This document shows, in pieces, positions 1,944-11,348 of a stretch of DNA of 17,234 nt. The first letter of the stretch is position 1. Each line of letters begins with the position of its first letter. The position numbers and the translations under genes were made by a program. The stretch covers positions 1 through 17,234 of IMG/VR virus record IMGVR_UViG_2778261690_000005, one strand, 5' to 3'. The stretch comes from a virus. Lineage: Duplodnaviria > Heunggongvirae > Uroviricota > Caudoviricetes. Below the pieces are notes generated by a model, which did no database searches, had not been told where the DNA came from, and saw only the letters and a program-made list of their open reading frames with translations.

Positions 1944-2403
1944 TAACCACCCCGCCAGCTTCTTTGAATTTGGCAATCAGACTATCGATCTTGTGTTCAT
2001 ACTGACCGTAGCCAGCACCGGGCAATGAAGCCCAAATATTACTGCAACGATCAATAGCCTGACGAATATCACCACGATCAATCATCGGTAAAGCGCCACG
2101 CTCTTTAATCTGCTGCAATGCCACTGCATCCTGGCTTTTGGGAGAGAAGTCTTTCAGGCCAAGCTGCTTACGGTAAGCATCCCACCAACGGGAAAGAAGC
2201 TGGTAACGTCCTGCTGCTGTTGATTTGAGTTTGGGGTTTAGCGTGACAAGTTTGCGAGGGTGATCGGAGTAATCAGTGAATAGCTCTCCGCCTACAATGA
2301 CGTCATAACCATGATTTCTGGTTTTCTGCCGTCCGTTATCAGTTCCCTCTGACCACGCCAGCATATCGAGGAACGCCTTACGTTGATTATTGATTTCCAC
2401 CAT
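1927..2403 (-). CDS. R: Endolysin R (lytic transglycosylase)
   Basis: 158 aa, near-identical to lambda R as recalled ([53 protein letters not shown]...). Overlaps S by 17 nt as in lambda. Confidence 0.95.
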
Positions 2404-2952: not shown

Positions 2953-3028
2953 TGGTGCTGGTTAACGGACTTGAACCGCTACCCATTCGCTTACAAGGCG
3001 ACTGCTCTACCATTGGAGCTAAACCAGC
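2953..3028 (-). tRNA. tRNA-Thr (anticodon UGU)
   Basis: Hand-folded 76-nt cloverleaf on the minus strand: 7-bp acceptor stem GCTGGTT/AACCAGC, D-stem GCTC/GAGC, anticodon loop CTTGTAA (U33, anticodon TGT, A37), T-arm AGCGG-TTCAAGT-CCGTT, discriminator A, encoded CCA. Confidence 0.7.
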
Positions 3029-3033
3029 ATGTT

Positions 3034-3108
3034 TGGCGGGACAGCGTGGGCTCGAACCACGATAAGAAGGTTAACAGCCTTCCGTAATGACCTTTATACG
3101 ACTGACCC
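3034..3108 (-). tRNA. tRNA-Asn (anticodon GUU), somewhat divergent
   Basis: Hand-folded 75-nt cloverleaf: perfect anticodon stem GAAGG/CCTTC with loop CTGTTAA, T-arm CGTGG-TTCGAGC-CCACG, encoded CCA. The acceptor stem GGGTCAG/CTGTCCC has one T-T mismatch and the D-stem is weak. Confidence 0.6.
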
Positions 3109-3194: not shown

Positions 3195-3690
3195 GGCTTT
3201 TAACAGCAACATGCTTAACTTTCTCAACACGTTTACGCATTTTGAAAGCATTTTGCATTGGCTGGTACAAAACAAATAACGACGCTTTCAGGATGTCGTC
3301 AATTTCGTTTCTACAGGTTGCCAGTGAAGGTTTTCTACATCCCTCGCCACCACGTCCACACATCTTGCGTGGCTTTGCAGTCGCGTGATAGTAGGATGCA
3401 ATTGCTCGCTTAGATGAACCATGAGCGTAGTAGCTGAGGAGGATGCCAAAGGCTTTCTTGTCAATGTACATGACGGAATCGACGACCTGAGAAATCAACA
3501 TTCCATCATCATCATTGCACATTGGCCTTGTCATAACTCTTCCCGGCTCTACGCTCTCCATGAACTTCGCTATTACGCTGCTCATGCGCTTTTCCAGACG
3601 ACCTGAATAAACCCATGCGCCCCACAGTTCAAGCCAGCCATTCAGCCACTCATGCTGTTCTTTGGTGAGGTTTAGTTCTCTTATGCCCAC
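3172..3690 (-). CDS. Q: Late antiterminator Q, phage 82 / QuuD type (not lambda-Q type)
   Basis: 172 aa between the nin region and the lysis genes. Motifs [29 protein letters not shown] resemble DLP12 QuuD / phage-82 Q as recalled; a Cys cluster (CGRGGEGC...C) is present. Confidence 0.75.
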
Positions 3691-4352
3691 GCGCCTTCTC
3701 CCTGTACCTGAATCAATGTGAGATTTCCGCAGAACACTGCGCCGGTATCGATATACATCTGGTTGGCAAATTTGAGTGGTTTCACTGCTGGCGTATGACC
3801 AAAGATGAACGTGTCCGCGCCTTTAATTTCTTTCACGATCCCGTTTTGTGAGTTGCTGATTCGTTCGCGGTTCCAGATTACCTGCTGATGATCAACTGGC
3901 TTTCCAAATTCGTATTCGTCACAAGGATAATCGGCGTGGCAGATGACATATTTTTTATCTTTGCTCACCAGTTCGATGATTAACGGAAGTTCATCTGCTT
4001 TATGGGCAAGAGCTTTAGCCAGAATTTCTTTGTCGTAATCGAGATTAAAGAACCAGCCACCGCCATTAAGCAGCCAGTGATTAACGTTTCCACGCTCTGA
4101 TAAGCCATCAATCATCATTTGCTCATGGTTTCCACGTACAGCTCTGAACCAGGGGAATGTGATTAATTCCAGGCATTCGACGTTCTCTGTACCGCGATCA
4201 ACCAAATCGCCCACTGAGATAAGCAGGTCTTTTTTGGTGTCGAATCCTATCGTCTCCAGTTTTTTCATCAGGTTCGTGTAGCATCCGTGCAGATCGCCAA
4301 CTACCAAAATATTTCGGTATTTGCTGCCATCAATTTTTTCGTAATAGCGCAT
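3681..4352 (-). CDS. ninI: Ser/Thr protein phosphatase NinI (lambda PPase, orf221)
   Basis: Near-identical to lambda phosphatase from [15 protein letters not shown]...; metallophosphatase motifs GDLHG, GDLVDRG, GNHE. The six-frame ORF start at 4427 is an upstream extension. Confidence 0.9.
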
Positions 4353-9326: not shown

Positions 9327-10043
9327 ATGGAAAATAAAAAATCACTGACGACAGAACAGCTAGAAGACGCTAAGCGGCTTAAGGCTTTGTATGAGTCAAA
9401 AAAGAAAGAATTGGGAATAACCCAATACTCAATCGCTGATGAACTGGGTATCACCCAAGGAGCGGTAGGGCATTATCTTAATGGCAGAAACGCGCTAAAC
9501 GTTGAGGTTGCATCTGGTTTTGCACGACTGTTGCAAGTCTCAATTGCTGATTTTAGCCAGTCAATTGCTGCCAAGGTTGCAGAACAGGCAGAAAGCCTTA
9601 AGAGCGATGCCAACGTAAGGTATGCAGGAGAATACAGAGCAGGAAAGAGGTATCCGGTGTTAAGCAGTATCCAGGCTGGCTCGTGGTGTGAAGCATGCGA
9701 ACCATACACCATTAAAGACATAGATGTTTGGCTTGAGTCTGACGCGCATATTCAAGGTAATGCGTTCTGGCTTAAAGTGGAAGGTGATTCAATGACGGCA
9801 CCGGTTGGGTTAAGCATTCCAGAGGGAACATTCGTTCTTTTCGATACCGGAAGGGAGGCGATCAACGGCAGCTTGGTCATAGCAAAACTTTCTGACTCTA
9901 ACGAAGCAACATTCAAGAAGCTGATAATCGACGGCGGAAATAAATACCTCAAGGGACTTAATCCTGCATGGCCTCTCGTGCCAATCAATGGAAACTGCAA
10001 GATTATAGGCGTTGCAATTGAGACAAAACTCAGACTGGTTTGA
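9327..10043 (+). CDS. cI: CI repressor (HTH N-domain plus S24 LexA-like autocleavage domain)
   Basis: 238 aa. N-terminus LTTEQLEDAKRLKALYESKKKELGITQ matches lambda CI ([27 protein letters not shown]) as recalled; Ala-Gly cleavage-site candidate; C-terminal GDSM...FKKLI...LNP motif. Confidence 0.9.
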   Translation: MENKKSLTTEQLEDAKRLKALYESKKKELGITQYSIADELGITQGAVGHYLNGRNALNVEVASGFARLLQVSIADFSQSIAAKVAEQAESLKSDANVRYAGEYRAGKRYPVLSSIQAGSWCEACEPYTIKDIDVWLESDAHIQGNAFWLKVEGDSMTAPVGLSIPEGTFVLFDTGREAINGSLVIAKLSDSNEATFKKLIIDGGNKYLKGLNPAWPLVPINGNCKIIGVAIETKLRLV

Positions 10044-10430: not shown

Positions 10431-10516
10431 CCCATAATCCCGGCAGCAATAGCTATCGGGATCAACTTCACATATCCCGCATAAAAAGCACTGAACAAGC
10501 AGACGACGAAAAAATA

Positions 10517-10603
10517 AATATCCTTTGTATTCATTTGCTTATCATTATTTCACCAAAAATAAATACCTTGGGTATTTACACAATAAAATACCTACAGTAT
10601 TCT
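10517..10603 (+). promoter_or_regulatory. OL operator region with pL candidate
   Basis: Three dyad sites of the same family as OR: AATATCCTTTGTATT (10517-10531), AATACCTTGGGTATT (10562-10576), AATACCTACAGTATT (10587-10601). pL candidate: -35 TTTACA (10575-10580), 17-bp spacer, -10 TATTCT (10598-10603), the same -10 hexamer as the pR candidate. Confidence 0.55.
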
Positions 10604-10649
10604 TTAGCCATCAGCAGGACGCTGGTAGCCAAACGGAACAGATTGGCAG

Positions 10650-10690
10650 GCTCTTTAACATTGATGGGATTGTCCCGCCGAAATGCGGGA
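10650..10690 (+). promoter_or_regulatory. nutL: boxA (GCTCTTTAAC) plus boxB hairpin (TCCCGCCGAAATGCGGGA)
   Basis: Exact copy of the nutR boxA and boxB on the opposite strand, downstream of pL and upstream of N. boxA resembles the rrn-type boxA (GCTCTTTAACAA). Confidence 0.7.
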
Positions 10691-11048
10691 ACTGAGTTTA
10701 ACCAAACAGGAGGTGCCGTAATGGTGCACTAACGCGGTTAGACCGCAGCCGAAAGGCAATGCAGCAGTAATGATGCTGCCCCGAGTCGCGTAATGGCGAG
10801 CAGGTTTAGCAGACCGATGTGAGGGTAAATAAGGGAACATGCTCCGGAAAGGCAGCGCGAATGCCAGACGCGCACCGGTTATCAGCGGCTAATAAGCGAC
10901 AGAGACTCAAGGGCATGAGCGCGCTCACTGCGAGAGTGTGAGTCAAAGAGTAGTTGGCTTTGGGGTGACGTGAAGTGCAGCTGCACGACGGCAACCGGAA
11001 GATAAGCACCCGGCGCGTCACCGCCAAAGTCAATCATCGGAGGTCAAC

Positions 11049-11348
11049 ATGACAGTAGTCATTACATATCTGGCTGACGATAACGCCAGAAATCGCCGCA
11101 GAGCACGCAGACAGGCTCAACGTGAACAGGCAATGCAAGAACAGCGATTGGCGCGAAAGATTGCGCTAAAGCTCTCTGGTTGCGTCAGAGCAGATAAAGC
11201 AGCATCACTCGGAAGCCTTCGCTGCAAGAAGGCAGAAGAAGTCGAGCGTAAACAGAACCGTATTTACTACCGCAAGCCACGCAGTGAAATGGGTGTGACT
11301 TGTGTTGGTCGCCAGAAAATGAAATTAGGCAGCAAACCACTTATTTGA
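11049..11348 (+). CDS. N: N antiterminator
   Basis: 99 aa with an N-terminal Arg-rich motif (DDNARNRRRARRQAQREQ) and a C-terminus resembling lambda N (YYRKPRSEMGVTCVGRQKMKLGSKPLI versus WYSKPGERGITCSGRQKIKGKSIPLI, from memory). RBS GGAGG with a 5-nt spacer; nutL and nutR are present. Confidence 0.85.
   Translation: MTVVITYLADDNARNRRRARRQAQREQAMQEQRLARKIALKLSGCVRADKAASLGSLRCKKAEEVERKQNRIYYRKPRSEMGVTCVGRQKMKLGSKPLI

Follow-up and report, generated by a model that had tools for sequence, protein, structure and literature searches.

The spacer between nutL and the N gene in the window (the whole 17,234-nt stretch of Caudoviricetes DNA analysed here) houses an RNA module with a covarying pseudoknotted fold preceded by a ribosome-binding start-stop frame. 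Judged from its homologs, this module is an undescribed RNA family of temperate phages and conjugative plasmids of Enterobacterales (a host range drawn from phage and plasmid collections), and we found no description of it in the searchable literature. Viral contigs and phage records supply 126 distinct full-length members of the family, plasmids add further copies, and the window copy scores 229 bits against a family covariance model built on a trimmed alignment.

The first-pass annotation had read the interval as one long structured leader, richer in GC than its flanks, in which some 360 nt separate nutL from N. Length and composition hold, since alignment to the annotated nutL of phage HK620 puts about 357 nt between the end of nutL and the N start at 11049, and GC content is 53-57% over 10600-11100 vs 36-44% in the flanks. 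The single leader does not hold, the spacer being made of two parts, that is, an insertion of 251 nt (10693-10943) followed by a standard HK620-type N leader of 105 nt (10944-11048). The insert has no counterpart in HK620, mEpX2, HK630, HF4s and others, all of which carry the same nutL, leader and N, and many phages match only its flanks. Comparison with HK620 gives the empty site as GGGAAC/CAAAGAG (the slash marks the insertion point). The core of the module covers 10709-10943 (~235 nt), of which the fold takes up ~210 nt (Table 1).

Table 1. Features of the nutL-N region in the window (positions are those of the window).
Feature	Position	Strand	Evidence and remarks
pL-like promoter TTTACA-17-TATTCT	10575..10603	+	Promoter scan; coincides with annotated HK620 pL by alignment; candidate source of the transcript
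nutL: boxA GGCTCTTTAACA (~10649-60), boxB hairpin CCCGCCGAAATGCGGG (10674-89)	10649..10692	+	Alignment to annotated HK620 nutL
251-nt insertion relative to HK620-type phages, containing the whole RNA module	10693..10943	+	Three-way alignment with mEp213 (present) and HK620 (absent)
Module Shine-Dalgarno AGGAGG	10708..10713	+	GGAGG, GGAG or GAGG in 103/121 homologs
Mini-ORF AUG GUG CAC UAA (Met-Val-His-stop)	10721..10732	+	ATG in one alignment column in 120/126 copies; TTG in 3 more
P1, putative hairpin CGG-UUAGA-CCG	10735..10745	+	97% paired; nearly invariant, hence covariation uninformative; first paired base at +15 from the A of AUG
P2, hairpin GCC-GAAA-GGC, variable and peripheral	10748..10757	+	3/3 pairs change on both sides; longer or missing depending on subfamily
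P3, hairpin GCAGCA-GUAAUGA-UGCUGC, conserved 7-nt loop	10761..10779	+	6/6 pairs change on both sides; 96% paired
Junction helix CCC (10780-82) / GGG (10823-25), around conserved GAGUC, P4 and P5	10780..10825	+	Covariation of the innermost pair
P4	10786-89/10796-99	+	3/4 pairs covary
P5, variant form with 2-nt bulge	10800-05/10813-20	+	2/5 pairs covary
Pseudoknot: P5 loop AGCA (10808-11) with UGCU (10840-43), directly 5' of P6	10808..10843	+	98.7% paired; 3/3 pairs change on both sides
P6, CCGG/CCGG (10844-47/10875-78), enclosing P7	10844..10878	+	3/4 pairs covary
P7, GCGCG/CGCGC; conserved 9-nt loop AAUGCCAGA	10855-59/10869-73	+	5/5 pairs covary; 100% paired
P8, short hairpin GCU-AAUA-AGC, the weakest helix	10888..10897	+	77-80% paired; third pair covaries; two subfamilies have a larger insert in its place
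P9, hairpin CUCA-AGGGCA-UGAG, near-invariant loop	10906..10919	+	99% paired
P10, hairpin CUCACU-GCGAGA-G(U)GUGAG, which closes the module at its 3' end	10924..10942	+	98-99% paired; both sides change at 3 pairs
Ordinary pL/N leader: long imperfect hairpin	10953..11034	+	MFE -43.5 kcal/mol, z = -3.7
N-like antiterminator gene, 99 aa	11049..11348	+	PHROG 271 (anti-termination protein N-like), E = 7e-37; aligns to HK620 N

Support for the fold, which consists of ~11 helices and a pseudoknot, comes from the comparison of homologs, since the MFE fold of the insert alone is no better than that of shuffled sequences (z = -0.8) and thermodynamic folding would not have flagged it. Two alignments have 96.1% and 96.6% of their cells paired, where shifted controls give 31-40% (31-36% for the first). 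Changes on both sides are seen at 32 of 49 pairs in the first and at 31 of 46 in the second, and none of 500 shuffles reaches the observed values. The covariance analysis proposed beforehand thus finds a conserved structure, and two elements picked out by eye are part of it: the 6-bp hairpin (10761-66/10774-79, every pair of which covaries) and one of the GNRA-like loops (GAAA at 10751-54). The innermost pair of the junction helix swaps between C-G and U-A without exception (28:13 in A3, 29:19 in A4 and 73:24 in A5). Alignment is poor at this point for the variant subfamily that includes the window copy, and the coordinates given for P5 and for the 3' strand of the junction are therefore inferred. 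Variants of the pseudoknot can be recognised by eye among the copies (CAUAC/GUAUG, CACAU/AUGUG and UGC/GCA), and compensatory forms of P9 (CUCG/CGAG and CCCA/UGGG) occur only in copies retrieved by a pattern lying outside P9. As for P1, the MFE fold offers a long-range alternative (10743-46 with 10885-88), which covariation neither favours nor disfavours. Candidate tertiary contacts, all between invariant bases, would be a kissing interaction of GCC in the P7 loop with GGC in the P9 loop, and GAG 10783-85 with CUC 10906-08. Automated approaches fared less well: RNAalifold on a MAFFT alignment recovered only part of the fold, a simple scan for stacks of compatible columns gave too much noise, and column pairs singled out by MI with APC (such as 213-244 and 298-313) were subfamily signatures mixed among real helices, which we did not accept as pairs.

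The fold does not travel alone. The SD and the mini-ORF reported earlier are both present, AGGAGGTG at 10708-10715 and ATG-GTG-CAC-TAA downstream, with a gap of 5 nt between them rather than 6. The GGAGG core of the window SD ends 7 nt before the AUG (8 nt is the commonest spacing across homologs). Chance accounts neither for this arrangement, kept as SD plus ORF in 120 of 126 distinct homologs, nor for the fully covarying P3. Every copy reaches a stop codon 0-5 sense codons after the AUG, and the AUG frame is closed within 6 codons in 100% of copies vs 61% and 21% for the other two frames. The ORF occurs in 49 different sequences, among which no residue beyond Met is shared, and in all of these variants 15-16 nt separate the AUG from the first P1 pair; SD and mini-ORF accompany the fold into every context found. 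By this pattern of variation, what is conserved in the mini-ORF is the device rather than the peptide, and a fold starting at +15/+16 from the AUG would lie at the leading edge of an initiating ribosome. The window copy and its homologs thus have the SD, the AUG and the early stop by which a bar-type minigene or start-stop ORF is defined. The profile of a leader-peptide attenuator or regulatory uORF is different: there is no conserved peptide, the downstream genes are unrelated, and no terminator follows the window copy on the + strand.

As the first-pass annotation had held, no protein ORF is apparent, the entropy being 0.719, 0.712 and 0.706 in the three codon phases (no 3-nt periodicity). 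A small protein gene on either strand was rejected because of these equal entropies, and because the open stretches on the minus strand, which exist because the + strand is purine-rich, start and end at inconsistent columns between homologs. The Rfam search also suggested beforehand matches the element to no Rfam 15 family: at gathering thresholds the whole window yields two tRNAs only, at E up to 10 nothing meaningful appears over 10450-11150, and in 8 diverse homologous loci no match overlaps the element. As for tRNA- or tmRNA-like elements, ARAGORN and Rfam find only tRNA-Thr and tRNA-Asn (2953-3108) in the window, and neither ARAGORN nor Rfam at E up to 10 detects similarity to any host RNA family. 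Short motifs reminiscent of 16S/23S segments and of the sarcin-ricin loop were put down to chance, since their order differs, they vary among homologs and no Rfam rRNA model matches; likewise, 120 genome-contig loci matching the 16-mer CTCAAGGGCATRRGCG were discarded as chance matches, nhmmer giving a single hit of 14.7 bits. The label given to the element by PGAP in E. coli genomes is 'none'.

In size, in its pseudoknot and multi-helix junction, and in its invariant unpaired nucleotides, the module resembles large riboswitch aptamers. It might then be a switch, in which an aptamer-like sensor of a metabolite, a signalling nucleotide or translation capacity tunes elongation or downstream operon expression together with the mini-ORF, whose translation must open P1 and may couple ribosome traffic to the fold. 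We consider this improbable, since the order is inverted relative to riboswitches (SD and AUG lie 5' of the fold), the downstream genes vary, none being conserved, no terminator or sequestered start site is conserved either, and there is no covariation for an alternative pairing with the SD.

The genomic distribution of the module is wide and patchy. The 139 phage loci fall into (i) the pL leader or operon (53), (ii) the late leader after or near Q (38), (iii) the stretch from lysis cassette to structural genes (18) and (iv) an unclassified remainder (30). The Q genes concerned belong to three unrelated families, and elsewhere the module precedes tRNAs or unrelated genes, or follows lysis cassettes. 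On plasmids, copies lie between traA/traB (a NusG paralog)/traC and the operon for a type IVb pilus and transfer and, on another plasmid, ahead of a virB-like type IV secretion operon. Homology between copies from different contexts ends at P10. An intrinsic terminator lies directly upstream in 38 of 126 copies, in many of them ~10 nt before the SD, and a terminator comes after the module in 22 of 126, as does an annotated one in phiKO2; a promoter scan found no promoter belonging to the module itself. These pL, late and plasmid-operon placements suggest that the module repeatedly heads very long mobile-element operons or lies inside them, often beside the site where a processive antiterminator (N, Q or a NusG paralog) is loaded.

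Given this distribution, the module is not N-specific. That all 357 nt serve N as a dedicated leader for processing and translational control, as their position between nutL and N would suggest, is barely credible, because the insert is missing from phages with the same N and leader, an N-like gene follows only about 14 of the 49 copies in a pL context, and most copies lie in contexts unrelated to N, plasmids included. What does point to N is the 3' third. The N leader of lambda has a hairpin that is sensitive to RNase III, and 10944-11048 likewise contains a long, predicted double-stranded hairpin (10953-11034) between nutL and the ribosome-binding site of N, which stops 4 nt 5' of the N SD (11039-43) and folds better than any of 200 shuffles. 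It is also found in HK620, which has no insert, and again in L112, where the changes in its stem compensate each other and the gene that follows is not N. The 12-bp palindrome noticed earlier (GTGCAGCTGCAC, 10975-86) is there, as a small side branch of this hairpin. By analogy with lambda, 10944-11048 fits a lambda-type N-leader element for processing and translational control, where RNase III would cleave. The earlier proposal of an RNA element for N therefore stands as regards a noncoding structured RNA, a genuine and conserved mini-ORF, and the 3' 105 nt, and falls as regards the insert (10693-10943), which does not co-occur with N in every such leader, has no counterpart in lambda or HK620 and is found before unrelated genes.

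Genomes that are otherwise near-identical differ in the precise presence or absence of the module at an intergenic site, several loci have HNH or homing endonuclease genes 0.4-1.5 kb away, and some partial copies consist of the 3' domain only. These could be the marks of a selfish or remnant element that does nothing for its carrier, such as an insertion, ribozyme-based or homing-associated, spreading between intergenic sites of mobile elements. This reading is highly improbable in our view. The insert has neither terminal repeats nor target duplications, and no recombinase is linked to it; the element is intergenic, matches no intron model and has an empty site without the 5'-exon U expected for a group I or other mobile intron. 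Moreover, as judged from covariation and from the retained start-stop frame, structure and device are under strong purifying selection in at least 10 genera.

Our tentative proposal, which we hold to be quite possible, is that the module is a portable ribosome-loading leader RNA that aids the expression of long mobile-element operons. Transcribed within the pL transcript, directly behind nutL, it would let a ribosome dock on the nascent RNA, flush with the fold, to run a futile start-stop cycle only. Close to the 5' end of the long operon transcript, ribosome and fold would together make up a stable particle, acting in cis to favour full-length expression of the operon, possibly by (i) blocking Rho, (ii) blocking 5'-end-dependent entry of RNase E or (iii) setting up early coupling between ribosome and RNA polymerase. 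The docked ribosome could also shield the fold from mispairing with upstream sequence, and this would account for a single module working in so many settings.

Several observations argue against cis docking. The module is optional, being absent from close relatives such as HK620 and, in a search with filters off for a divergent copy, from the E. coli IncI-gamma/K1, Mixta and Y. ruckeri plasmids. Operons endowed with N, Q or a NusG paralog should need no added protection from Rho, and a simple barrier would need neither ~11 helices nor a pseudoknot and invariant loops, a complexity that suggests a specific partner or ligand. P1, the very helix that would abut the ribosome, is invariant and its pairing thus unproven, and the terminator behind the module in phiKO2 looks like the 3' end of a product. 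A bolder version of the docking proposal, in which the module founds a new class of cis-acting 'operon booster' common to phages and conjugative plasmids, is in our opinion unlikely; there, the fold would park a ribosome at the start-stop frame behind RNA polymerase, and the particle, working beside antiterminators of the N, Q or NusG-paralog kind, would protect the transcription of very long mobile-element operons, or their transcript, from Rho, premature termination or decay. If true, it would be the first natural RNA conserved for docking a ribosome without making protein.

Some of the same observations suit a trans-acting accessory RNA (an 'RNA moron'), that is, a stable noncoding RNA, possibly excised, with a host or phage factor that it binds or imitates (anti-defence, translation takeover or decoy), the ribosome on the mini-ORF serving only to protect or insulate its 5' end. 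The module would then be sited where strong lytic or transfer transcription passes. Accessory cargo typically has the patchy, optional distribution that the module shows (it is present in 113 of 5426 complete E. coli genomes), terminators do follow some copies, and the complex fold with invariant loops again suggests a specific partner; other large phage-associated RNAs without assigned function, GOLLD and ROOL, provide precedents (PMC12286853). The sites after Q beside tRNAs and after lysis genes are classic places for phage cargo, and location by itself cannot tell a cis from a trans role. We nonetheless hold a trans-acting RNA to be possible but less likely than not, because the module appears to lack a promoter of its own, many copies have a terminator a mere ~10 nt upstream of the SD, no partner is known, host RNA families offer no likeness, and both independent plasmid contexts are operon leaders.

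Among the closest known systems are the putL/putR RNAs of phage HK022 and the B. subtilis EAR, which are likewise structured RNAs in the leader of, or inside, long operons of mobile or accessory elements, on which they act in cis (as we propose for the module); putL even occupies the same place, just downstream of pL. However, put RNAs are ~70 nt long, with two stem-loops and no ribosome-binding site, whereas the module is larger, pseudoknotted, equipped with a mini-ORF and coexistent with N, Q or a NusG paralog. The family model finds no match in HK022 20000-40751 (early and late regions), and no Rfam model, EAR included, matches the module. The bar minigenes of lambda are isolated two-codon ORFs that are toxic in peptidyl-tRNA hydrolase mutants. 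The mechanism behind this toxicity is treated elsewhere (PMC2490762). Bar minigenes and start-stop ORFs share with the module an SD, an AUG and a stop after 0-2 sense codons (up to 5 in the module), transcription from pL and a product too short to be a functional protein, but they have no attached conserved fold, whereas in the module the codons are free to vary and it is the spacing between AUG and fold that is conserved. GOLLD and ROOL are also complex, covariation-supported folds of phages and prophages, sometimes beside tRNA genes (PMC12286853), but are 2-4 times larger, come from other phyla and have no described conserved start-stop frame. Lastly, the plasmid modules, in a transfer-operon leader downstream of a NusG-paralog gene, recall the ops/JUMPstart element of RfaH and the dfn leader hairpin of LoaP. 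The module is far from either in size, ops being a 12-nt DNA element and the LoaP hairpin small; besides, plasmids with the same NusG paralog are often without the module, and phage copies have no NusG paralog nearby.

If real, the module adds a pseudoknotted RNA of ~235 nt to the well-studied lambdoid phages and to IncI-like plasmids, where it was previously unannotated. Its defining trait would be a fold at a fixed distance from a ribosome-binding start-stop frame, a combination absent from all families compared. Its recurrence beside three unrelated kinds of antiterminator makes it testable how long mobile-element operons secure full-length expression and recruit ribosomes, all the more so as cultivable carriers exist (mEp213, Hafnia yong1 and phiKO2), together with a natural insert-free relative (HK620). 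On a more practical note, the module accounts for recurrent calls of a 'hypothetical protein' on the opposite strand.

The window comes from a lambdoid prophage and covers its immunity and early-left region, in which the repressor gene, pL-like promoter, nutL and N-like gene align to annotated features of phage HK620 (see table). What the first-pass annotation had described as a single leader between nutL and N is real as leader sequence but consists of two parts. When the window is aligned with mEp213 and HK620, the latter is continuous from ...GCGGGAAC into CAAAGAGTAG..., and at this junction both the window and mEp213 have 251 additional bases (10693-10943). HK620, mEpX2, HK630, HF4s, HK140, CUS-3 and other phages match only the window's two flanks, and since the insert is missing from so many of them, the remaining 105 nt (10944-11048) are the ordinary leader of this N type. 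This part folds as one long imperfect hairpin of roughly 20 bp (10953-11034; -43.5 kcal/mol, z = -3.7), which stops 4 nt upstream of the N Shine-Dalgarno (SD) sequence, and of which the palindrome noted earlier, confirmed at 10975-86, is a small side branch. The same hairpin follows the insert in a contig from a related phage (L112), with compensating stem changes and with its apical part CAACCGGAAGATAAGCACCCGG kept. Its recurrence there, before a gene unrelated to N, suggests that it may be a general pL-leader element rather than an N-specific one, and by analogy with the lambda N leader it is plausibly an RNase III and translational-control element.

The insert itself is a portable, optional and strongly conserved RNA module. 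Homologs of 77-89% identity are found at unrelated genomic places (see table), and two exact-pattern scans of viral contigs followed by nhmmer filtering yielded 126 distinct full-length copies. When 100 loci are searched with a covariance model (R1), each yields exactly one full-length copy, and the window likewise yields only one (10709-10943, 229 bits). Among complete E. coli genomes, 113 of 5426 also have the element, which is always chromosomal there and receives no annotation from PGAP; its hosts include Escherichia, Klebsiella, Enterobacter, Hafnia, Providencia, Edwardsiella, Pectobacterium, Pantoea, Rahnella, Yersinia and Erwinia. The Rfam match that the first-pass annotation had proposed looking for did not materialise (no Rfam 15 family for the window copy or diverse homologs, up to E = 10), ARAGORN reports nothing at the element, and the RNA family is described nowhere in the literature searched, the coverage of which is incomplete.

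The module is not N-specific. Of 139 phage loci, there are 53 where it has cI upstream and lies in the pL leader or operon, 38 where it belongs to a late leader and either directly follows Q, from any of three unrelated families, or precedes the lysis cassette, and 18 where it lies between the lysis cassette and structural genes, with 30 unclassified. An intrinsic terminator, which is a tR'-like terminator after Q, abuts the SD in 38 of 126 copies, and a terminator lies downstream of the element in 22. In the pL context, an N-like gene follows only about 14 of 49 copies, the lambda-type N motif is missing from most, and boxA occurs within 200 nt in only 12 of 45; no N gene is recognisable before rdgC in Edwardsiella phage EPP-1 (2820-3896). 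The earlier suggestion of a regulatory RNA thus stands as regards a conserved structured RNA but not as regards N, homologs being in unrelated contexts, and it is very improbable that the insert is a dedicated N leader. In mEp213, the left operon has two annotated N-like antiterminator genes (1891-2223 and 3376-3648), the second of which is preceded by the module, with a remnant boxB directly upstream of it.

The fold was modelled from inspection and mutual information, its helices being numbered P1-P10 from the 5' end, and then tested by counting pairs. With 50 representatives aligned by MAFFT, standard pairs make up 96.1% of cells, versus 31-36% with partners slid by 1-3 columns, none of 500 shuffles reaches the observed values, and both sides change in 32 of 49 pairs, which is the covariation across homologs that had been proposed as a check. 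A model-fitted alignment of 100 copies gives 96.6% and 31 of 46, but the MAFFT result is the more independent because the model-fitted alignment is biased towards the model. The 6-bp hairpin reported earlier corresponds to P3, and a GNRA-like loop is indeed found (GAAA, 10751-54). Compensatory variants in P9 emerged only among copies retrieved by a pattern outside it, and the junction helix invariably has C-G or U-A as its innermost pair (29:19 and 73:24 in the MAFFT and model-fitted sets, respectively). P1 (10735-37 with 10743-45), like part of P8, is nearly invariant or weak, and in an alternative model the P1 bases may pair long-range instead. P5 and junction coordinates are inferred in the window, because its copy belongs to a subfamily with a variant P5 region.

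Features of the window (first ten rows) and of related loci
Feature	Coordinates	Remarks
cI-like repressor gene	9327-10043	
pL-like promoter	10575-10603	
nutL	boxA about 10649-60; boxB hairpin 10674-89	
N-like gene	11049-11348	PHROG 271, E = 7e-37
P3	10761-66 with 10774-79	6/6 pairs covary
P4; P6	10786-89 with 10796-99; 10844-47 with 10875-78	among best-supported helices
P7	10855-59 with 10869-73	5/5 covary; 100% paired
P9; P10	10906-09 with 10916-19; 10924-29 with 10936-42	among best-supported helices
Pseudoknot	P5 loop 10808-11 with 10840-43	four bases 5' of P6; 98.7% paired; 3/3 covary
AGGAGGTG with SD; mini-ORF	10708-15; 10721-32	
Stx2c phages; Hafnia phage yong1		module after pL
Providencia PSTCR7lys		module downstream of cI repressor
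Klebsiella RothC		module directly after Q, just ahead of tRNA-Ile and tRNA-Arg
E. coli mEp237		module directly after Q
E. coli 733R5		module after lysis genes
Klebsiella phiKO2		module after lysis genes, followed by a terminator
Edwardsiella EPP-1 (L342)	3480-3729	within unannotated ~1 kb after repressor region
Plasmids of Pectobacterium, Rahnella, Pantoea, Yersinia	L343 4984-5219; L345 4970-5206; L344 4984-5233; L351 4001-4232	full-length copies

As the first-pass annotation had it, the stretch is GC-enriched (53-57%, versus 36-44% in the flanks) and devoid of a protein ORF: there is no 3-nt periodicity in the module (0.719/0.712/0.706 by codon phase). Coding on the minus strand was rejected, its long open stretches lying at columns that are inconsistent among homologs and being a consequence of the purine-rich plus strand. 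'Hypothetical protein' genes occasionally annotated opposite the RNA (RothC, L005 2916-3252; E. coli RefSeq matches H107 and H117) most likely arise artefactually, because the minus strand is pyrimidine-rich and poor in stops.

The most unusual feature of the module is the one already flagged in the first reading, the mini-ORF AUG GUG CAC UAA behind AGGAGGTG, both of which are present where they had been placed. An ATG occupies one alignment column in 120 of 126 distinct copies (TTG in 3 more), GGAGG, GGAG or GAGG precedes the start in 103 of 121, most commonly at a spacing of 8 nt, and the frame closes in every copy after 0-5 additional sense codons (three codons, n = 81; two, n = 19; bare start-stop, n = 17; six, n = 4), whereas within six codons the other two frames close in just 61% and 21% of copies. 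Among 49 different sequences, Met is the sole conserved residue. Whatever the stop position, pairing in the fold begins at +15/+16 from the A of AUG, where an initiating ribosome has its leading edge (toeprint). An initiation complex can therefore form without melting the fold, while any translocation must open P1. Since homology between copies of different contexts extends from about 10 nt upstream of the SD to P10, the ribosome-binding device is part of the module and not of its surroundings. The module thus combines a ribosome-binding start-stop frame with a pseudoknotted fold that begins at a fixed distance from it.

The family is also found on plasmids that are conjugative or mobilizable, where full-length copies precede pilus or type IV secretion operons. 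Between traA/traB/traC and a type IVb pilus and transfer operon, it is found on IncI-like (MPF_I) plasmids from Pectobacterium (238 bits), Rahnella (231 bits) and Pantoea (179 bits), and in Yersinia frederiksenii it precedes a virB-like type IV secretion operon. On the Pectobacterium plasmid, where traA encodes a LuxR-type HTH protein, the module is downstream of traB, which encodes a NusG paralog (PF02357); the proteins that occupy the traB position in Pantoea and Rahnella have no Pfam match. Two more plasmid copies sit inside prophages, (i) between lysis genes and terminase and (ii) two genes downstream of Q, before the lysis cassette. An unfiltered model search detects no module on plasmids of E. 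coli (IncI-gamma/K1), Mixta and Yersinia ruckeri (L346-L348), which share the traB-traC-pil layout; on the E. coli plasmid, a gap of 953 nt separates traC from pilI.

The module is hence found repeatedly in very long mobile-element operons, either at their head or within them, often right after the site where a processive antiterminator loads (N at nutL, Q at pR'/tR', the NusG paralog on plasmids), which favours a role in cis on its operon, our tentative first choice. A ribosome would park against the fold on nascent RNA, insulating it from upstream sequence, and the resulting particle would promote full-length operon expression, either by barring the way to Rho or 5'-end-dependent RNase E, or by establishing early ribosome-polymerase coupling. 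The main rival, which we regard as possible though less probable, is a trans-acting accessory RNA with a putative partner. It would fit the patchiness of the distribution, insertion at cargo-type sites, the terminator after the phiKO2 copy and a fold more elaborate than a barrier requires. Less likely than either are a sensor or switch, which we think unlikely, and a selfish element, which seems quite improbable, as well as the N leader discussed earlier.

Known systems offer only partial parallels. The module is at most alike in its way of working to the put and EAR leader RNAs, differing from put in homology and architecture and having no Rfam match, EAR model included. Lambda bar minigenes resemble its start-stop frame but are without an attached fold and depend on particular codons, and GOLLD and ROOL are alike only as phage-borne structured RNAs lacking an assigned function. 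No family that pairs a ribosome-docking frame with a tertiary-type fold, both of them conserved, was found in a literature search of incomplete coverage.

Several neighbouring features are worth recording. The window has adjacent tRNA genes, Thr-TGT and Asn-GTT (2953-3108, minus strand), in what looks like a prophage late-leader region, a pair comparable to that directly downstream of the RothC module. In viral contig L114, three regularly spaced matches to the CRISPR-DR4 model (2241-2351, minus strand; 31, 30 and 22 bits, just below the gathering score of 35) lie ~1 kb from the module. Finally, partial copies with the 3' domain only (about P6-P10, 80-120 nt) occur on plasmids of Klebsiella aerogenes and Erwinia tasmaniensis (H160-H163) and in four viral contigs (L026, L069, L092, L109), and may either have decayed from longer copies or represent a shorter variant that stands alone.
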